From contig CAZUOM010000002.1 in assembly GCA_964621305.1 (NCBI GenBank), positions 1-63,105 of the forward strand: DNA of 63,105 nucleotides, in the 5' to 3' direction. The translations under genes were made by a program, and so were the position numbers. Of the stretch, positions 1 through 10,063 are shown in pieces. Each line of letters starts with the position of its first letter. The first letter of the stretch is position 1. Origin of the DNA: an uncultured Gammaproteobacteria bacterium (lineage in GTDB: Bacteria > Patescibacteriota > Microgenomatia > UBA10105 > UBA927). A model generated the notes under the pieces. It was given only the letters and a program-made list of their open reading frames with translations. It made no database searches and was not told where the DNA came from.

Positions 1-1174
<1,174 letters not shown>

Positions 1175-1328
1175 GAGAACAGAGGAGTGTACCCTTTGGT
1201 ACACCCTAAAGAACCCAACGAAACGCTTGCTGTTCTTGGGTAATCTTCGATTACCCCTTCTGATGCAACTACTCTTTAAAAAATCTACCGACCAGGAATT
1301 GCACCTGAGTCGATAGTATTTATTAAAT

Positions 1329-1340
1329 TTTCAAAGAGCA
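1329..1340 (-). promoter_or_regulatory. boxA-like antitermination element in the tRNA-23S spacer
   Basis: TGCTCTTTGAAA versus the consensus TGCTCTTTAACA, directly downstream of tRNA-Ala. Confidence 0.55.
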
Positions 1341-1342
1341 AG

Positions 1343-1415
1343 TGGACCCGGGCGGAGTCGAACCGCCTACCTCTTCATTGCAAATGAAGCATTCAACCAG
1401 GTAAACTTCGGGCCC
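1343..1415 (-). tRNA. tRNA-Ala(TGC)
   Basis: Cloverleaf: acceptor GGGCCCG/CGGGTCC, anticodon arm CTTCA-TTTGCAA-TGAAG, T-loop TTCGACT; CCA not encoded. Confidence 0.93.
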
Positions 1416-1420
1416 GACTC

Positions 1421-1450
1421 GAAAAAATAACCCCGCCTTGATGCGGGGTT
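1421..1450 (-). terminator. Intrinsic terminator-like hairpin in the rRNA leader
   Basis: AACCCCGC-ATCAAG-GCGGGGTT followed by ATTTTTT on the minus strand. Confidence 0.6.
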
Positions 1451-1597
1451 GAAAACGACATAAAGAGAAGCTATTGCACACGCAGAAACTGCTTGATTGA
1501 AAAGAGTATGTGTGTCTCGTTGCTTCTCATGAAGAAATATTCCATCCGGAATATATATTCCGAACGAAATCGTCCACCTCGCATCAAAGGCAACTCT

Positions 1598-1649: not shown

Positions 1650-2636
1650 CTACCTAGCATACTCAACATAGTTCTCCGGTGTCGGCTGGCCGTAAGCGAC
1701 GTGGAAAATATTGTTTGGGATGTCAAAAATCACCGATCCGATCGTTTCCTCTCGACAAACCTTAGGATCATTACGGTCACTTAAGACTTGTTTTATATCT
1801 TCAGCTGTGTTTGTAGTTTCCAAAAGTTTTTCTACCTTCTTGTAGCGATCTTCTGACACGGTATTGCCCTTGTCAATGCGCTTAAGCTCGGTGACGTAGT
1901 GATTGGTGTGAACATATTTTGCTCGCTGGATTTTTTCGGTCATATATTCTCTTGCAGACGTTTCAATGTTCCATAACCGATCTCCTTGGACCAACAGATG
2001 ATTAAATCCGTTCCGTCTCGGAACTGTTTTTATTAGTTCTTCTGCTTCCTCAAGTGTTTTACAATCAATAATGGCTCGCGCAATAAACGCTTTAGGAACA
2101 CCACCGCGTGCATCTGTGTGAGACAACTCATTGACCGCCTCAACAAGTCCAAAGTGATTTATCGCAATCGAATCGCCGATGATTGTGTTGACAAAATCAT
2201 ATCCAAGGCCAAATATTTTTATCCCATCAACAGTTGCGTCCAAAAGATATAGATGCGCAAGTGCTTCTTTTTCCCAATCTTCATTATGGCCGACCAGATA
2301 ACCATCGTGATACGGAATGCCAATAATCGTGCAGTGGTCTGAACCAGTGGCTTCTTCAAAATAGGAAAGTTCATGACCGTTGGAAAGAAACAGCTCCTCT
2401 ATTGGGAGGCCAGCTCCATCTGCTAACCCTCGAAGTTCATCGACATACTGTGGAAAGTACTTGTTTGTTAGTTGCAGCAGCTCGTTTCCCTTGAATCGGA
2501 AACTAGTAAAGTAGTCAGGATATAAGGATTTATTTTTGTTAAACAAAGTCAATATTGCTTCCCGCATGGTCTCACCCACAGCGCGCCCCACCTCGTAATG
2601 AGTTCCGCTGGTGCGGACAATAGGAAATTCTTTCAT
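1650..2636 (-). CDS. C45-family Ntn hydrolase (acyl-CoA:6-APA acyltransferase-like peptidase)
   Basis: DH-C-T autoproteolytic nucleophile site, GHNED and HTNHY motifs. Confidence 0.75.
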   Translation of the reverse strand: MKEFPIVRTSGTHYEVGRAVGETMREAILTLFNKNKSLYPDYFTSFRFKGNELLQLTNKYFPQYVDELRGLADGAGLPIEELFLSNGHELSYFEEATGSDHCTIIGIPYHDGYLVGHNEDWEKEALAHLYLLDATVDGIKIFGLGYDFVNTIIGDSIAINHFGLVEAVNELSHTDARGGVPKAFIARAIIDCKTLEEAEELIKTVPRRNGFNHLLVQGDRLWNIETSAREYMTEKIQRAKYVHTNHYVTELKRIDKGNTVSEDRYKKVEKLLETTNTAEDIKQVLSDRNDPKVCREETIGSVIFDIPNNIFHVAYGQPTPENYVEYAR

Positions 2637-3397
2637 AATGTTTTCTTAAACCACGCAACAACTTCATTCAAAAATTCCTCACGGATTGCTCGCGGCACAT
2701 CAGTGATGCCGTGGCCGCCGTTTTTAAATATTTTCAGCTTCTTTTGCTTGGCCGCAACTGCATCAAAAAATCTTTTAACATCAACGGTATCGATTTTATC
2801 GTCTTGATCTCCATGAATAACCAACATTGGAGCCGTCAGTTTTTGAGCAATCACAAGAGGATCAAATACATCTATCGATGGCCAGAATTCCGGTCCAACA
2901 ATGGTCTTTTTTCCACTTGCCCGAGGCAATGCCGTGTCCCTGTCATAATAAATGGTCGCCCCTCTCCCCTGGAATTGTTTCCGAAACCGGGTCAACCAAT
3001 AGACGCCACTGGCAAAGGAAAGAGACTTAACGCCGAATAGGCTTGCTGATAACGTAGTGGGAGCGCCAAACGATGTCGCATGAATTCCAATCCTCTCTGT
3101 TATAACATTTTTATTTTGTTTGACCCATGTCAAAACCGACGCTAATTCTTTGGCTCTATGTGGCAGTGCAAGCTCCCTCCCTGTCCCCACTACGCTAAAG
3201 TTGAACTGGACGGTCAAAAAACCGGCCTCAACCAAACGCTTCGAAACTTCATCATTGGAATTTTTCCACTCATGGAGATCCATTCCAAATCCGGACACGA
3301 TCACCACTGCCGGAAACGGCCCATTGCCATCTGGCTTTCGTATGAGCGCCTCCAGCTTTTCTCCAAACCGGTTAGGAATCCAGACTGCTTCATTCAT
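2633..3397 (-). CDS. Alpha/beta hydrolase
   Basis: Nucleophile elbow ATSFG, acid in HGDQDD, His in GGHG. Confidence 0.85.
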   Translation of the reverse strand: MNEAVWIPNRFGEKLEALIRKPDGNGPFPAVVIVSGFGMDLHEWKNSNDEVSKRLVEAGFLTVQFNFSVVGTGRELALPHRAKELASVLTWVKQNKNVITERIGIHATSFGAPTTLSASLFGVKSLSFASGVYWLTRFRKQFQGRGATIYYDRDTALPRASGKKTIVGPEFWPSIDVFDPLVIAQKLTAPMLVIHGDQDDKIDTVDVKRFFDAVAAKQKKLKIFKNGGHGITDVPRAIREEFLNEVVAWFKKTL

Positions 3398-3798
3398 GGT
3401 TCGATGCGAAGCTTGGCATCCAATCGGTCGAAGTGTTTGTCAAACGAGAGAATACCGGCGTGCTCTTCCTTTGCCAGCGACCACGTAAGAAGATCAACAA
3501 AATCTATCGGCGAGTGCTTATAGACTTCCAGTGCTTCATTAACAGCTGTTTTTGAAAAAATCTCCAACCATGGCGGAGAGATAAATAACAGCAATTTATC
3601 CGCTGCAAACTCTTTTTTTTCTTTGTACCAATGCTCCAACAAAAATAATACCTCTACGAGGGTGGCGTGGGTGACGACTGCCCGTATTTTCCCATCCGCT
3701 ACGGATTCAAACCAACGGCGCACGCTCTCGGCTTGCCCAACAACATCATTCGTCAGATACCGTAAAATAACATTGGTATCAATAAATACACTACTCAT
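3394..3798 (-). CDS. vapC: PIN-domain (VapC) toxin
   Basis: FIDTNV, TLVE, DFVD and SFD acidic motifs; coupled to an upstream AbrB-type gene. Confidence 0.9.
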   Translation of the reverse strand: MSSVFIDTNVILRYLTNDVVGQAESVRRWFESVADGKIRAVVTHATLVEVLFLLEHWYKEKKEFAADKLLLFISPPWLEIFSKTAVNEALEVYKHSPIDFVDLLTWSLAKEEHAGILSFDKHFDRLDAKLRIEP

Positions 3799-4040
3799 GA
3801 ATTCATCCGACGCGTGCCCAAGTAGCGAATAAACGATTGTCTCATGGCACGAATATTCATCTTCTTTTTAGTTTTCACCGAACCCAAGAGAGAAAAGAAA
3901 TCGGCCGCAGGTTTTATTCTTGCGCCGTCCGTATCTTTGGTAATAATTACGCGCTGCCTGGGCTGCAGCCCGAGCGCCGCCCGGATCGAAGCCGGTATTG
4001 TTATCTGCCCCTTCTGTGTAATGGTAGAATATCCGATCAT
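3795..4040 (-). CDS. AbrB/MazE/SpoVT-type antitoxin
   Basis: STITQKGQITIPASIRAALGL motif. Confidence 0.9.
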   Translation of the reverse strand: MIGYSTITQKGQITIPASIRAALGLQPRQRVIITKDTDGARIKPAADFFSLLGSVKTKKKMNIRAMRQSFIRYLGTRRMNS

Positions 4041-4049
4041 AGTATTACT

Positions 4050-4078
4050 ACTATACGAAATGTATTACATTCTGTCAA
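4050..4078 (-). promoter_or_regulatory. vapBC promoter with palindromic operator
   Basis: TTGACA-N17-TATAGT; AATGTA-N-TACATT palindrome at 4059-4071 within the spacer. Confidence 0.7.
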
Positions 4079-4089
4079 TAGGTATTACC

Positions 4090-4730
4090 TTATGGTTTTC
4101 TGGAAAAACTTGATATCCACCAAAGATCGCGGTGGTCTGGTCGGCGATCTTTTTTGTTGTGCGTATACTGTTCGACACGTGCAAATCCGGCGTCTTCTAA
4201 TAGATTTTTAAGCCCATTCTGTTCAAAATAGGTAAAATGCCGCGATAAATGAGATGGCAATTCTTCGGCAACATCCGCCTCACCCATCCCCGCTTTCACC
4301 ATAATGAAAAGAACACCATTGGGTTTCAGGAGTTGGAAAAACCTTCGAAGTACCATTGGCACTTCGGATCGTTTCAAATGAAGTAGCGATGCGCAGGCCC
4401 AGACTCCATCAAAAGTTCCTTTTTGAAAAGGCAAGGCGCGCAAATCGACAAGTACGAATCGGGGGTTTTGACCATCTTTCAGTTTCGTTTTGGCTATATC
4501 GAGTAACTTTTCTGATAGATCTACTCCGACTACATCAAGCCCTTTTGATACAAAATAAAAACTGTCTCGACCGGCGGCGCAGCCTACGTCAAGTATTTTA
4601 GCGCCTTTTTGGAAGAAATTGTCAAACTTATCTCTCTCTAGAGTCGGAACATACGAGTCGATCTGTTGTGCATAGGTGGTCGCTATTGCGTCGTACACGG
4701 CAATCGTTTTTTTATGTGGTCATCGCCCAT
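4090..4730 (-). CDS. Class I SAM-dependent methyltransferase; 5' end frameshifted at an A7 tract (4707-4713)
   Basis: LDVGCAAG motif I. ATG 4730 has TATACT 6 nt upstream, and one extra A gives MGDDHIKKTIAVYDAIA. Confidence 0.85.
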
Positions 4731-4790
4731 GCCCGTAGTATAGCGAAAATCGTAATTGCAAACCCAAGGTATGTTGATATACTTAGCATA

Positions 4791-5129
4791 ATGATCGTCA
4801 CATCTACATTGCCATTTACACCAGAACAGATTGCACAAGTCAAAGAACGATTTGGTATATACGTAAAAACGGTCATCGATATAGAGAAAAAAATTTGCTG
4901 CGCGGGCATGGATAGGCATTTTGAGGGTGAGGCATTACTCCTTGAATCGGGATCACGTCAATCAAATATTTGGGGAGGTGGAATCGATATGGAAACAAAA
5001 GAAATTGACTTTAACTCATTCATCAATATCCGACCGCAAGACAACAATCTCAAAAATGAAATCCAAAGTGAGAAAACGAAAAAAACATATACCGAATTGA
5101 CAAAGTATTTCTTTAAACTCGTCTTATGA
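4791..5129 (+). CDS. DUF5674-like protein
   Basis: KTVIDI...H...LLESGSRQSNIWGGG...NSFINIRP pattern recalled for this family; TATACT 7 nt before ATG 4791. Confidence 0.7.
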   Translation: MIVTSTLPFTPEQIAQVKERFGIYVKTVIDIEKKICCAGMDRHFEGEALLLESGSRQSNIWGGGIDMETKEIDFNSFINIRPQDNNLKNEIQSEKTKKTYTELTKYFFKLVL

Positions 5130-5401
5130 CAGAAACAAAAATACTCATCGGATCACTTTCAAACGATCTGGCCCGGGTGGCGACGATGATCTATAGAAAA
5201 TCGTCCGGTGCAGAAATATTTTTCCGAGAGATGTTTCGATGGGTCAATAAACTCGATACCAACTCAGTCAAACCATATATTCAAACAATTCTTTCTGATA
5301 TTAAATCCCACGAGAAATATCCACAACTCTCCCATGAACGTGCAGAGACGTACCTGATGTACAGTACAATTCTTCAAAATTACAGTCTCCACATGGAATA
5401 A
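5126..5401 (+). CDS. Small helical hypothetical protein coupled to the DUF5674-like gene
   Basis: ATGA overlap, 91 aa. Confidence 0.7.
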   Translation: MTETKILIGSLSNDLARVATMIYRKSSGAEIFFREMFRWVNKLDTNSVKPYIQTILSDIKSHEKYPQLSHERAETYLMYSTILQNYSLHME

Positions 5402-5425
5402 CGTCTAACGAAGAGTGAAGTTATT

Positions 5426-7066
<1,641 letters not shown>

Positions 7067-7396
7067 TTAATCTACGATTGCCAGAATATCTTTTTGTTCC
7101 ACGATTGTCCATTCTTCGCCGTTGACCTTAACTTCATTGCCACCCCATTTTTTGTACATTACGCGGTCACCAACGTTGACGACCATTTTTCCATCAGAGC
7201 AGCAATCTTTTTCTCCGTCACCGCACTGACAATCATGGCACCCTCCTTTGCCCGGACCGACGGCCATCACGAGTCCAACCTGAGGCTTTTCCTTAACGCT
7301 ATCCGGAAGAACAATGCCCGACGGAAGCACGTCTTCGGCAGCAAGCGGCTTAATCAAAACGTTATCAAACAATGGTTTATAGTTAACTTTTGCCAT
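7067..7396 (-). CDS. groS: Co-chaperonin GroES with a Cys-rich insertion
   Basis: PLFDNVLIKP, SGIVLPDSVKEKP, VGDRVMY; directly upstream of groL. Confidence 0.97.
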   Translation of the reverse strand: MAKVNYKPLFDNVLIKPLAAEDVLPSGIVLPDSVKEKPQVGLVMAVGPGKGGCHDCQCGDGEKDCCSDGKMVVNVGDRVMYKKWGGNEVKVNGEEWTIVEQKDILAIVD

Positions 7397-7404
7397 AGAA
7401 AAAA

Positions 7405-7458
7405 TTGGCAGTCTCTATAAGTGACCGCTATTCTAGCGGCCATAAAAAATCTTGTCAA
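7405..7458 (-). promoter_or_regulatory. groESL promoter plus CIRCE-like (HrcA) operator
   Basis: TTGACA-N17-TAGAAT (7430-7458); ATAGCGGTC-N9-GACTGCCAA (7405-7431), a degenerate TTAGCACTC-N9-GAGTGCTAA. Confidence 0.65.
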
Positions 7459-8338
7459 GTGGTATTTTATGTCGTACTAAACGGGCTGCCAATTTGCTCC
7501 GAATCCACTCCCGTGCATCAACCGGATGAAAACGGATAAGGCTGTCGTTAACTACTTCTGTAGAACGGCGTTTGTTCATGTACCATAATTGAATAGCTCG
7601 GACTGGAAACTCAATAATGCTAAGTGCTAAATGCCAAATGCTAAATATTTTCTTTGATTTTTTTATTGACCATTTATCATTTATCACTTGGCATTTTGCT
7701 ATCCACGCATTGGGTAAAAAAGACTTAACCCACCTGTTGGCTTTCAAAAATCTCCAATACGTTCCTCCACTCTCCCATAACGGAATCATCTGCAAAACCT
7801 CATGAGCGGTAAATAAATCTTGCTCTCTTCTGGGTACGACCATGTGGGATTCGTCCACGTACATATTCAGACAAATTTTATTACAAAAAGAGACGTCCCC
7901 GGGCTTCCTGCGTAATCCGAGTATTTCAAGAATAATCGTTGTCAAAAATCGAGCGCTCCACAAAGTTCCGGCCGCGGCAACCACATAGAAATCAATATCA
8001 TCATCGCGACGTGTATTTTGCATCGCAAGGGCACCGGTAACACCAACGAGCTTGATGGTAGGAATAAACTTAAGAATATTTGCTGCCTGTGCCGCAATTC
8101 GCATTTTCCGCTTTGCCCATTTCTCCCGTTGTTTTCGTATCGCTACAATTCTTCGCCTCCCCTCAAGAAATAAACGCCCATCCAGTGAGTTAACTCCTTG
8201 TATTTTTTTTAACTTTGAACTTTTAACTTTTAACTTTGAACTTTTTATAATCCATTTCTCCAACTCTTGTTCCGTCAACGGATAATCGAATACGTCAGCA
8301 TAGGCCAACGTCGCAAAAACTGTGTCACGAAGCGTCAT
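7433..8338 (-). CDS. Hypothetical protein with a pol-beta-like nucleotidyltransferase motif
   Basis: VGVTGALA...DDDIDFYVV (G-[S/A]...DxD); carries two micro-repeat inserts. Confidence 0.6.
   Translation of the reverse strand: MTLRDTVFATLAYADVFDYPLTEQELEKWIIKSSKLKVKSSKLKKIQGVNSLDGRLFLEGRRRIVAIRKQREKWAKRKMRIAAQAANILKFIPTIKLVGVTGALAMQNTRRDDDIDFYVVAAAGTLWSARFLTTIILEILGLRRKPGDVSFCNKICLNMYVDESHMVVPRREQDLFTAHEVLQMIPLWESGGTYWRFLKANRWVKSFLPNAWIAKCQVINDKWSIKKSKKIFSIWHLALSIIEFPVRAIQLWYMNKRRSTEVVNDSLIRFHPVDAREWIRSKLAARLVRHKIPLDKIFYGR
7622..7697. repeat. Inverted pair of 7-nt tandem micro-repeats inside a CDS
   Basis: Minus strand AAATGCC AAGTGAT AAATGAT AAATGGT ... ATTTAGC ATTTGGC ATTTAGC. Confidence 0.7.
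8210..8244. repeat. (T/G)AACTTT x5 in-frame micro-repeat
   Basis: Five 7-mers encoding SSKLKVKSSKL. Confidence 0.85.
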
Positions 8339-8344
8339 TGAAAA

Positions 8345-9946
8345 CTAATGTTCGGCAGGTACAGAAGTAGATACTAGGCCGTATTGCGACAAAATTTGTT
8401 GAAATCCAGAAGCCAATGTTTGAAGCACAGCAGAAGGAGCGGAACCGGCAATTGTTCCGTTGACAGCGTCCTCCAAATATTTGATAAGCTTATCATTGAG
8501 TCCATTGTCAAAGGTACGAGATGCCAACGGGAAGGTTCTTGCGTTTTTTGCCTGCGCAATATACGCACCAACGTACGGATCTTCTAGCATAGTGTTGCCA
8601 AGCTCAACCCGTGCATAAGGCTCACCGAATAACCGAGTCTTAGATGCTTCAGTGTACAGTTTTATCGCTCCCTCTTTACTTGTTAAATACTTGACGAATT
8701 CCCAAGCGGCTTCAGGTTCTCTACTTTTACTGGAGACTCCCTCCACCCAAAACGAAGCCCACGTAACTGTCGTCCCTGGCAATTGCGGTATCGGTGAGAT
8801 ATGAAAACGAAGTTTTGGGTTAATCTCTCGAATATCAAGCGCGCGCCAGGAGGGGGCTAGTATCATTGCAACTTTCTCCGTAGCAAATGCATACACAGAA
8901 TTATCAAGCGTGTCGTTCCAGGTATAGACTGGATCCGATGGGGTTGCAAATTTGCGATAAAATATTAGCGTTTCTTCTGCTTCTTTTCCCGTTGGTTTTG
9001 CTAAATTTGCTCCATTCTGAAGCATCATAACGGCAAGTATGTCACTAGCAGCTTCTATATTCCCCCACGTGCCGAGCGAAATGGCGGAGGTTGTAATGAT
9101 ATCAGCATTTTTTACTGTCAGTTGAGGAACAATAGACAACACATCTTCCCATGTCGTAGGTACTTTTACACCGGCAGCAGCAAAAAGATCATCGTTAGTA
9201 TAGAGTCCTAACCCATCAATTTCTATCGGGATTCCGTAGATAGACGAACCGGCCATCAGGCTGTCAGCAACTATCGGGTAAAAAGATTTGGAAAAATCCT
9301 CCGCCGTCGTGACCGTTTTAGGAACAAGCGATAGCTCATTTTTGAGCATAGGCACCCACGTGTTGTGAAAACGAAAAACGTCAGGCCCATCCCCCCTGGC
9401 TATGGATGCCTGGAGGCGCTCCCGAAATTGTTTAGGGGATTGCTTGACGTAGTCAACCTTTATTTTCGGATGCGCCGACTCAAATGCGGCGATGACTGGC
9501 TGTATTATGCTTTCGTTTTCCCACAGCCCCCAATAAGATATGGTCACTTCCTTTGCTCCGGATAACAATCCCAACACAAAACGGGCACCGGCAAATACTG
9601 CCCCTGCCAAAAGTAAAAACACAACAATCATGAGGAGTCGCCTGACCAAAAAACTGCGCTCATGAGGAGAAGCTGGAGAAGAAACCTGCGGACCTCCTTG
9701 CGGGATAAATGGATTCTCTTTAGCGGATAAACCCGTCTGCGGAGCTGGTAGAACGGTCTCCGCCGCTGGAACGATATAAGTATCTTGTGGAGGAGGCGCT
9801 GGGGGCTCTTGGACTACCTGAGGCAAATCAATCGTCATGCCGGAAAGCGGAGATTGGGGCGCTAGAGGCGGAGGCGAAGCTCCGTTCGAAGAACCTACCT
9901 CTTCTTGAATAGGAAAATTTTGCTGGGGGCGATTTTGATCGTCCAT
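8345..9946 (-). CDS. Extracellular solute-binding protein (family 1, sugar-type) with Pro-rich N-terminus and TM anchor
   Basis: ISYWGLWE, GDGPDVF, LYTNDDLFAAAG and FATEKVAM motifs; probable start MDDQ at 9946. Confidence 0.85.
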   Translation of the reverse strand: MDDQNRPQQNFPIQEEVGSSNGASPPPLAPQSPLSGMTIDLPQVVQEPPAPPPQDTYIVPAAETVLPAPQTGLSAKENPFIPQGGPQVSSPASPHERSFLVRRLLMIVVFLLLAGAVFAGARFVLGLLSGAKEVTISYWGLWENESIIQPVIAAFESAHPKIKVDYVKQSPKQFRERLQASIARGDGPDVFRFHNTWVPMLKNELSLVPKTVTTAEDFSKSFYPIVADSLMAGSSIYGIPIEIDGLGLYTNDDLFAAAGVKVPTTWEDVLSIVPQLTVKNADIITTSAISLGTWGNIEAASDILAVMMLQNGANLAKPTGKEAEETLIFYRKFATPSDPVYTWNDTLDNSVYAFATEKVAMILAPSWRALDIREINPKLRFHISPIPQLPGTTVTWASFWVEGVSSKSREPEAAWEFVKYLTSKEGAIKLYTEASKTRLFGEPYARVELGNTMLEDPYVGAYIAQAKNARTFPLASRTFDNGLNDKLIKYLEDAVNGTIAGSAPSAVLQTLASGFQQILSQYGLVSTSVPAEH

Positions 9947-10063
9947 AAAAAAGGAATGTATACCCATCTTACTCAGGTTTGTAGCCCGTTAGGGCAAAAA
10001 AGCTGATTAGATGGGTATATACCGGAACAACCCTAAGTTGTTTCAGTATATAATCATCATAGC

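Follow-up and report, generated by a model that had tools for sequence, protein, structure and literature searches.

Introduction

Ribosome-mediated transcription attenuation is known from amino-acid operons (trp, his, leu, thr, ilv, and pheA) and from antibiotic-resistance operons (bmrCD, yxjB, mef/mel, and msrD), and related control acts at ampC and pyrBI/pyrE in Escherichia coli. Here, we describe a leader of ~170 nt that precedes an rRNA operon on contig CAZUOM010000002.1 (assembly GCA_964621305.1), of which the 63,105-nt stretch analyzed is called the window below. The DNA comes from a groundwater metagenome, and its nearest proteins belong to Candidatus Gottesmanbacteria (Microgenomates group, Candidate Phyla Radiation [CPR]), a lineage whose genomes are tiny, with few classical regulators and only one rRNA operon, which is unlinked. 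On balance, and with modest confidence, we favor reading the leader as a ribosome-mediated transcription attenuator that acts as a gate on the sole promoter of an unlinked tRNA-Ala–23S–5S operon. The reading builds on a promoter, a terminator, two alternative pairings with covariation, a conserved open frame of conserved geometry, and the obligatory passage of the terminator by transcription of the operon.

The amino-acid operon attenuators resemble this leader in their short frame (14–30 codons, compared with 17–20 here), in an antiterminator and a terminator that exclude each other, in a terminator placed just before the first gene, and in the coupling of transcription and translation, which is proposed here as well. 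They differ in controlling biosynthetic operons rather than a tRNA–rRNA operon and in carrying a run of regulatory codons, which is missing here. The 5′ strand of their antiterminator lies just after the frame, whereas here the RNA's extreme 5′ end, which precedes the frame, takes this role. Moreover, unlike in those attenuators, the whole frame is held in one hairpin that buries its own AUG and lies inside the antiterminator, and the stop codon is 26–37 nt off, too far to mask the terminator.

In the ampC and pyrBI/pyrE attenuators of E. coli, what is sensed is not a specific amino acid but the ease or closeness with which ribosomes trail the polymerase. Like the element proposed here, they are sensors of ribosome supply or coupling, theirs providing growth-rate or nucleotide-linked control. 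The pyrBI frame extends through the terminator hairpin, whose formation is physically blocked by the translating ribosome, whereas the present frame ends well before the hairpin; the site proposed for ampC is a ribosome-binding site with an immediate stop codon, unlike the frame of 17–20 codons here. The antibiotic-sensing attenuators have frames of similar length (~10–30 codons), and ribosome stalling re-partitions their anti-antiterminator, antiterminator and terminator hairpins; however, they serve resistance genes and respond to drug-stalled ribosomes, whereas the target here is rRNA and no stalling motif is conserved.

Several other systems share parts of the architecture. In Bacillus subtilis pyrG, termination is prevented when the nascent transcript pairs through its extreme 5′ end with the 5′ arm of a downstream terminator; the pairing bases there come from CTP-sensitive reiterative transcription, whereas those of the present leader are genome-encoded and have a local hairpin as competitor. 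ON-type riboswitches such as the pbuE adenine riboswitch likewise possess a P1 helix formed by the 5′ end, with a 3′ strand that overlaps the 5′ arm of the terminator, but they enclose an aptamer, whereas the domain enclosed here is a hairpin bearing an open reading frame (ORF), with no recognizable aptamer and no Rfam match. T-box leaders are defined by a specifier loop and a T-box sequence, and Rfam searches gave no T-box match here. Finally, rrn antitermination through boxA with NusB/E/A/G and SuhB secures read-through in rRNA leaders and spacers; a boxA-like element, UGCUCUUUGAAAA, is present in the operon, but it lies downstream of the leader and of the tRNA gene and could not serve the leader terminator.

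Results

A promoter, a leader and a terminator precede an unlinked tRNA-Ala–23S operon

The leader is transcribed from the minus strand, to which all coordinates of its parts refer. It follows a sigma-70-type promoter (1598–1626) with the −35 hexamer TTGACA (1626–1621), a 17-nt spacer and the −10 hexamer TAAAAT (1603–1598), which together agree with the consensus at 11 of 12 positions; the transcript is predicted to start at G1591 or close by. The leader ends in an intrinsic terminator (1422–1450) composed of the 5′ arm AACCCCGC (1450–1443), the loop AUCAAG (1442–1437), the 3′ arm GCGGGGUU (1436–1429) and the tail AUUUUUU (1428–1422), with a G+C-rich stem of 8 bp. The first gene of the operon, tRNA-Ala(UGC) (1342–1415, minus strand), begins 6 nt past the U-tract, and the 5′ part of the 23S rRNA gene (1–1174, minus strand; LSU_rRNA_bacteria match, 914.9 bits) follows and runs off the window. 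Neither a 16S gene nor tRNA-Ile is present in the 63-kb window. Judged from the sequence, the consensus promoter at 1626–1598 is the promoter of the tRNA-Ala–23S–5S operon.

A gene for a C45/AAT-family peptidase lies upstream of the promoter on the minus strand and ends at 1650. A protein-based scan of genome contigs for synteny through this gene gave no match, and the peptidase homologues found by protein search sit in other neighborhoods without rRNA. Because synteny failed, homologous leaders were collected by two other routes. Firstly, a lineage-specific 23S word yielded 86 genome loci, 64 of which showed tRNA-Ala followed by 23S with no 16S upstream, and nhmmer detected a homologue of the leader in 11 of these 64, on the same strand and 5′ of the tRNA. 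Secondly, a pattern derived from the leader (TCATGAGAA, a gap, and the terminator arms), which required no tRNA or rRNA, retrieved 113 metagenome stretches. About 75 of these were true homologues, as judged from a T-run past the stem and a TTGACA-17/18-TAnAAT promoter where the upstream DNA sufficed, and the remainder were chance matches within genes. Altogether, 71 homologous loci from Microgenomates/Gottesmanbacteria genomes and metagenomes gave 59 unique leaders, which form the comparison set for the counts given below; individual loci carry L numbers. The window and the 11 GTDB genomes make up a subset of 12 sequences obtained without the pattern, and these carry the same features as the metagenome set.

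In the 12 pattern-free sequences, the promoter reads TTGAC[AT]/TTGC[AG][CT], 17–18 nt, TA[ACG]AAT and lies 5–7 nt 5′ of a conserved UGC; most metagenome loci have it as well, a promoter match being an inclusion condition there. The terminator stem is present in all homologues, being part of the metagenome pattern. The first-pass annotation had assigned the leader to the tRNA-Ala–23S operon, and this is borne out by the homologues: tRNA-Ala on the same strand is the next feature in all 64 loci with a measurable distance, none of these 64 has the element away from tRNA-Ala–23S, and it occurs as a single copy in the window. In the relatives checked, 23S and then 5S follow tRNA-Ala, so that the order is leader, tRNA-Ala, 23S, 5S, with no 16S nearby.

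Between terminator and tRNA lie 6 to 253 nt, counted from the stem in most loci and from the T-run in a few, and no more than 26 nt in 14 of the 64 loci. A spacer of ≤26 nt leaves no space for another promoter, so transcription of the rRNA is obliged to cross the terminator. In spacers of at least 45 nt, the best candidate for a second promoter matched at only 9 of 12 positions. Long spacers (L037, L080, L081, L018, L086, L099, and L197) share two hairpins and the motif (U)UGCACAUUA(C/A), and the window has lost this long spacer; conserved RNA features 3′ of the terminator fit functional read-through transcripts.

The 5′ end of the transcript pairs with the terminator

The complementarity between the transcript's 5′ end and the terminator reported by the first-pass annotation was exact in its coordinates on the minus strand, and the pairing, here termed P1, belongs to the minimum free energy (MFE) structure of the window leader. 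CCUUUGAUGCGAGGU (1590–1576) is complementary to ACCCCGCAUCAAGG (1449–1436) through CCUU/AAGG, a U bulge, GAUGCG/CGCAUC, an A·C mismatch and GGU/ACC. The pairing reaches UGCCUU/AAGGCG (1592/1434) and so covers the first three bases of the terminator 3′ arm; its 3′ strand (1449–1434) thus overlaps the 5′ arm, the loop and the start of the 3′ arm. As P1 and the terminator use the same bases, the two are mutually exclusive, as had been claimed. Segment A (UGCCUUU, 1586–1592), the extreme 5′ end, provides the 5′ strand both of P1 and of a local hairpin, P0. Segment B (GAUGCG, 1580–1585) constitutes the P0 loop and has its complement, CGCAUC (1445–1440), in the terminator 5′ arm and loop. GGACGAU (1575–1569) lengthens P1 by pairing with GUCGUUU (1459–1453), which lies, together with the 3′ strand of the ORF hairpin (CUUCUC…AUG), in the linker 3′ of the stop codon (1453–1470).

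Folding of the single sequence 1416–1592 gave an MFE of −56.8 kcal/mol with P1 formed (z = −4.4; 0 of 200 shuffles as good), and enforcing the terminator was 2.2 kcal/mol worse. Among the 59 leaders, the duplex between the 5′ region and the terminator 5′ arm plus loop had a median z of −3.0 relative to shuffles, and cognate duplexes were more stable than non-cognate ones (−16.2 vs. −14.1 kcal/mol), with none of 5000 permutations at the cognate mean.

MAFFT with RNAalifold on whole leaders recovered the terminator alone. Variable hairpin insertions break the whole-leader alignment, and anchored blocks were therefore used, the anchors being the invariant 5′ UGC and the GCG that opens the terminator 3′ arm; the additional hairpins of relatives are inserted exactly between the two halves of the P1 5′ strand. 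In the resulting gap-free composite alignment, joined by artificial CACACACA linkers for a test of 17 pairs, 74.6% of the cells were paired, compared with 29–53% when the partner was slid. A slide control on three A/U-rich pairs was not discriminating, whereas the full 17-pair test was. Covariation among related leaders, which the first-pass annotation had proposed as a check, was present in P1: double-change cells numbered 51, whereas shuffles gave 29.9 ± 3.8 and none of 500 reached the observed count; the covariation score was 0.100 vs. 0.065. The pair formed by the base after UGC (x1:y1) is CG in 35 leaders, UA in 17–18, UG in 1 and mismatched in 5. In the second helix, UGC/GCA is invariant and is flanked by AU (24), GC (3) or GU (2) pairs. 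Compensated variants include GCCUU/AAGGC, GCUCGU/ACGAGC, GCUUG/CAAGC, GCCA/UGGC, GCCUG/CAGGC, CUGUG/CACAG and UAGAUGC/GCAUCUA. By these comparisons, the long-range antiterminator P1 is real and kept by compensatory changes.

When the RNA was cut just 5′ of the terminator 3′ arm, the 5′ arm was predicted to pair with the 5′ region at a mean probability of 0.81, and P1 was part of the MFE structure of 51 of 59 leaders, in a closed rod of P1, an optional branch P2 and the ORF hairpin. In contrast, the full-length MFE structure contained the terminator in 46 of 59 leaders. An RNA that favors P1 before the 3′ arm and the terminator at full length is bistable, and the outcome would be decided kinetically during transcription.

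The same 5′ bases have a second, local partner

P0 (GCCUU/GAGGU), the MFE structure of the 5′ region, is formed by segment A and segment C (GAGGU, 1576–1580). It was predicted in 53 of 59 leaders, with the variants GCCU/AGGC, GCUC/GAGC and GCCC/GGGC. The same 5′ base covaries with its partners in P0 and on the terminator side (C/G/G in 22 leaders, U/A/A or U/G/A in 14), and one base covarying with two alternative partners is the signature of a switch. The 5′-most bases are thus paired in both folds, and the P0 loop AUGCG, complementary to the terminator arm, could act as a toehold.

Between P0 and the frame, single-sequence folding places a variable hairpin, P2 (1541–1568), which contains the GGAAUAUAUAUUCC hairpin noted in the first-pass annotation and is missing or has another loop (UUCACC/UUUCCA) in relatives. 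The loop is UUCACC(U/A) or UUUCCA in L097, L098, L100, L111, L125, L171, L192, and L193 and in L008, L080, L118, L139, L170, L185, and L204; UUCACCUC is similar to the 3′ end of 16S rRNA. In the window, the P2 loop is AUAU, without the conserved loop.

A frame of near-constant length lies in its own hairpin

The leader contains a reading frame (1471–1530) with an AUG at 1530–1528, 19 codons (MRSNETHILFSIKQFLRVQ) and a UAG at 1473–1471, which the first-pass annotation did not record. It had noted the stem GAGAAGC (1528–1522)/GCUUCUC (1471–1465), which is indeed present and is the basal helix of the hairpin that holds the frame. The AUG lies in this stem, within a nearly invariant UUCAUGAGAAGC: (C)AUGAGAAGC pairs with GCUUCUC…AUG, which buries the start codon and brings the stop codon into contact with the 3′ strand. 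Bases past the stop codon are the predicted partners of the AUG in 43 of the 59 leaders. The strand with the AUG is invariant and its pairing partner varies, and inner helices of the ORF hairpin covary (CAUAC/GUGUG with AUCAA/UUGAU; AAAC/GUUU with AACU/AGUU and ACCAA/UUGGU). The frame is contained in the hairpin enclosed by P1 and overlaps neither P0, P1 nor the terminator.

The frame is open for 17–20 codons in all 59 leaders, including the 12 pattern-free ones, and has 19 codons in 29 of them, whereas composition shuffles kept it open in 36%. Frame +1 stops at once, and frame +2 meets a stop within 17 codons in 28 of 59. The frame persists through indels that shift it against the RNA motifs, its closure always falls within 4 codons, and the distance from stop codon to terminator stem is 26–37 nt in 57 of 59 leaders. 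Codon 2 is AGA in 58 of 59. Arg makes up 19% of the residues of the leader peptides and is preserved by CGN/AGR switches in L181 and L192; RRRLRV occurs in about one-third of them and is absent from whole subgroups.

The genuine genes of this organism (GroEL, GroES, AAT, hydrolase, PIN, AbrB, and others; window 1650–9967, minus strand) have no Shine-Dalgarno motif, and their upstream regions are A/U-rich, with that of the leader frame likewise U-rich. The organism thus seems, from its gene starts, to initiate translation without Shine-Dalgarno pairing. Because genuine genes here lack Shine-Dalgarno sequences, the idea that 30S subunits sense segment C as one was dropped. A longer frame from an AUG inside segment B was ruled out by in-frame stops upstream in 21 of 59 leaders.

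Proposed mechanism

In the termination fold, the 5′ end would be held in P0, the frame in its own hairpin, and the terminator would be formed. In the read-through fold, the first ~15 nt would be engaged in P1, stacked on the ORF hairpin, and the terminator would be precluded. Because its own hairpin buries the AUG, a ribosome could load only in the brief interval before the 3′ strand of the hairpin is transcribed. With no ribosome, the hairpin would close and keep the 5′ segment beside the emerging terminator arm, P1 would zip before the 3′ arm emerges, and the polymerase would read through into tRNA-Ala, 23S and 5S. With a ribosome loaded, the hairpin would stay melted and the ribosome would stand at or near the stop codon as the polymerase reaches the U-tract; P1 would not be pre-organized, P0 would persist, and the local terminator would prevail and stop transcription. 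Free initiation-competent ribosomes, or ribosomes stalled in the frame by starvation, would then lead to less 23S and 5S, a negative feedback acting in cis.

Several points weigh against the proposal of a ribosome-mediated attenuator. Masking the ribosome footprint in equilibrium folding left the equilibrium unchanged, and a stop codon 26–37 nt before the terminator leaves the ribosome unable to mask either terminator arm; with masking uninformative and the stop codon too distant, the direction of control has to be argued from kinetics. Translation of the frame, function of the terminator and the direction of the effect are all points that we infer from sequence. No regulatory codon run was found among the 59 leaders, and a Shine-Dalgarno sequence is absent before the frame. 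Conservation does not extend to the peptide sequence, changes being distributed evenly over the codon positions (176/150/165); selection at the amino-acid level was not seen in the leader peptide, and selection thus appears to act on the frame, its length and place, as in regulatory leader peptides, and not on a protein. The A/C-rich composition of the hairpin 5′ strand could lie partly behind the openness of the frame. In the metagenome set, the ATG word, the terminator stem and the rough spacing were imposed by the pattern, and the promoter and T-run served as filters. Finally, the leaders are related, so the shuffle statistics overstate their independence, a reservation that does not touch the register test or the many distinct pair types.

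Alternative explanations

The first alternative, which we consider unlikely but a serious contender, keeps the same attenuator and reverses its direction: translation of the leader would cause read-through, and an untranslated leader would fold sequentially into P0, the ORF hairpin and the terminator, as in trp 'superattenuation', so that rRNA synthesis would rise with translational activity in a growth-rate control like that of the E. coli ampC attenuator. Co-transcriptional folding favors local hairpins, P0 and the terminator are in the full-length MFE structure of 46 of 59 leaders, and all classical leader-peptide attenuators terminate if untranslated. In the short forms of the leader, no more than ~30 nt separate segments B and C from the AUG, so that P0 would be opened by an initiating ribosome. 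However, where a P2 of 40–50 nt separates the 5′ segments from the AUG, P0 is beyond the reach of the ribosome, and a ribosome over segment B would also block the antiterminator; masking the start region lowered the probability of P1 in short forms. Moreover, P1 is already favored in naked RNA before the 3′ arm (0.81), and a positive feedback of ribosomes on rRNA would be physiologically less stable.

Rather improbable, in our assessment, is an attenuator of the riboswitch-like or protein-binding kind, in which the conserved core would be an aptamer or a site for, e.g., a ribosomal protein or assembly factor, binding would shift the balance of P0, P1 and terminator, and the open frame would be a by-product of RNA constraints. 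The architecture is like that of ON-riboswitches with a P1 3′ strand overlapping the terminator. The UUCAUGAGAAGC strand and GGCGACGUUUGCGUGUG are highly conserved, third codon positions included, a codon-position signature is absent, and the core helices covary (CAUAC/GUGUG with AUCAA/UUGAU; AAAC/GUUU with AACU/AGUU). Against this stand the frame itself, open in 59 of 59 leaders despite frame-shifting indels and closing within 4 codons, and the position of its start and stop codons, one precisely at each foot of the basal helix. Instead of a multi-helix junction, the conserved core forms a simple long hairpin, the one that contains the frame. Rfam gave no family above threshold for the window and 11 relatives (the best being GcvB at 26.7 bits, gathering 42, and Trp_leader at 25.7 bits, gathering 41), permissive E-values gave only chance-level matches on the leader, and T-box had no match in the window or relatives even at E ≤ 1–10. 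A riboswitch, one of the readings offered by the first-pass annotation, is therefore not supported.

The chance that the element is a separate small gene, encoding a stable RNA of ~170 nt and/or a peptide of 19 residues, with a constitutively leaky terminator and P1 as its closing stem, appears slight. The element possesses a consensus promoter of its own as well as a canonical terminator, the P1 fold gives a closed rod whose ends are paired, as in many stable RNAs, a weak GcvB match exists below threshold (26.7 bits vs. gathering 42), and leader peptides and small RNAs derived from attenuators are known to have functions in trans (peTrpL). Nevertheless, the element always stands beside tRNA-Ala–23S (64 of 64 loci), and loci with short spacers have no other promoter for the rRNA operon. 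The closing stem would destroy the terminator, so both cannot be 'the' structure; P0, a covarying partner, would have no role, and the peptide is not conserved. The suggestion in the first-pass annotation of a free-standing small RNA of ~165 nt founders on the same linkage, the element never occurring away from tRNA-Ala–23S and the tRNA beginning 6–26 nt past the terminator in many loci.

A processing or stability element, either an RNase III-type stem left from an ancestral 16S–23S operon, as the first-pass annotation had also entertained, or a cap-like 5′ protection of the precursor, is hardly credible: although 16S and 23S are unlinked in the lineage, tRNA-Ala is a remnant of the old spacer and the 5′-most bases are paired in either fold, P1 encloses the leader alone and no rRNA, is irregular (about 13–21 bp), leaves the U-tract terminator, the alternative partner and the open frame unexplained, and belongs to a leader without similarity to 16S.

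Searches for transcripts gave no signal: no RNA runs with the window or the relative L114 were found, only conserved 23S words matching, and four groundwater metatranscriptomes mapped on the window and L168 gave zero depth upstream of 23S.

boxA and the genomic neighborhood

The boxA-like TACTCTTTTCAA (1508–1497) assigned to the leader by the first-pass annotation falls within the leader frame and is not conserved: a GCUCUUUAACAA-like consensus is absent, and relatives have variable A/C-rich coding sequence in its place. By inspection of the sequence, a boxA-like element, UGCUCUUUGAAAA (1328–1340, minus strand), lies instead in the spacer between tRNA-Ala and 23S, with UGCUCUUUAACAA and AGCUCAUUAACAA at its place in L099 and L165. 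We take it to be a boxA by the E. coli boxA consensus, and it is likely to be the Nus-factor antitermination signal of the operon. A boxA placed 3′ of the attenuator and of the tRNA would leave the Nus system unable to act on the leader terminator. The earlier interpretation is partly supported: an rRNA-leader attenuator is the best reading, whereas its boxA was wrong and the reading frame and P0 had been missed.

The window tRNA-Ala departs from the usual form in its A at position 8 and its odd D arm (GUUUACCUGGUUGAAU). In L038, L018, L197 and L108, a canonical tRNA-Ala is apparently nested in a second tRNA-like sequence of the window type, flanked by GGGCCCGAA… upstream and …CCGCCCGGGUCCA downstream; this looks as if the anticodon arm of the outer element had been swapped for a whole tRNA. 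Five relatives (L188, L118, L159, L192, and L094) have one or two group I introns in 23S, which is followed by 5S, with no 16S within 10–14 kb. Group I introns in CPR rRNA are already known (PMC12641178), and unlinked rRNA genes are known to be widespread (bioRxiv 705046).

Levybacteria-type loci without the leader (L052, L092, L039, L053, L076, and L078) share a motif, CUUCAUAAC, ~85 nt 5′ of tRNA-Ala. This motif reads as the start (ATGAAG) of a divergent gene, so that the Levybacteria-type 23S operon must be driven from a much shorter upstream region. In L161, a chance match of the leader pattern, a TTGACA-17-TATACT promoter and a leader of ~250 nt with no relation to the 23S leader precede the start of a 16S gene (GAGGAUUUGAUCCUGGUCCAGG).

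Two genes upstream of the rRNA leader, the window encodes a pair of an AbrB/MazE-like antitoxin and a PIN-domain toxin (3394–4040, minus strand), and AbrB/MazE–PIN-like pairs also occur in the counterparts of this neighborhood in relatives. The GroES homologue (7067–7396, minus strand; 109 aa) carries a Cys/His/Asp-rich insertion, GGCHDCQCGDGEKDCCSDG, that resembles a metal-binding loop. Many GTDB records titled 'uncultured Gammaproteobacteria bacterium' (MAG TPA_asm, binchicken), including L008, L012, L018, L020, L080, and L086, have the unlinked tRNA-Ala–23S locus of Microgenomates type together with the leader, and their organism labels look wrong.

Discussion

Bacterial growth is controlled chiefly at the synthesis of rRNA. 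In model organisms, the rRNA promoter is governed by guanosine tetraphosphate (ppGpp) with DksA, by the initiating nucleoside triphosphates, and by Fis, and to our knowledge no direct mechanism has ever been found for Nomura's feedback of ribosomes on their own rRNA synthesis. An attenuator controlling 23S synthesis, as the first-pass annotation had put forward among its options, appears to be the best reading of the present leader, in which the terminator and the competing pairing are both conserved and the pairing shows compensatory changes. In a full-text literature search that covered CPR rRNA operons, leader peptides, attenuators and ribosome feedback, no account of an rRNA operon preceded by a leader-peptide attenuator came up. 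We propose, as a possibility of clearly lower standing than the attenuator itself, that in Microgenomates ribosomes directly set the transcription of 23S–5S, the frame of 17–20 codons serving as a loading timer that chooses between antiterminator and terminator.

If this is true, a direct mechanism for ribosome feedback would lie between the only promoter and the tRNA-Ala–23S–5S genes, and ribosome-mediated attenuation would extend from amino-acid and resistance operons to operons of stable RNA. The leader is a defined RNA of less than 200 nt that is testable outside its uncultured host. For the organism, the element would provide a hard-wired, ppGpp-independent feedback of ribosomes on rRNA synthesis, through which an unlinked 23S operon could be kept in step with translation capacity.

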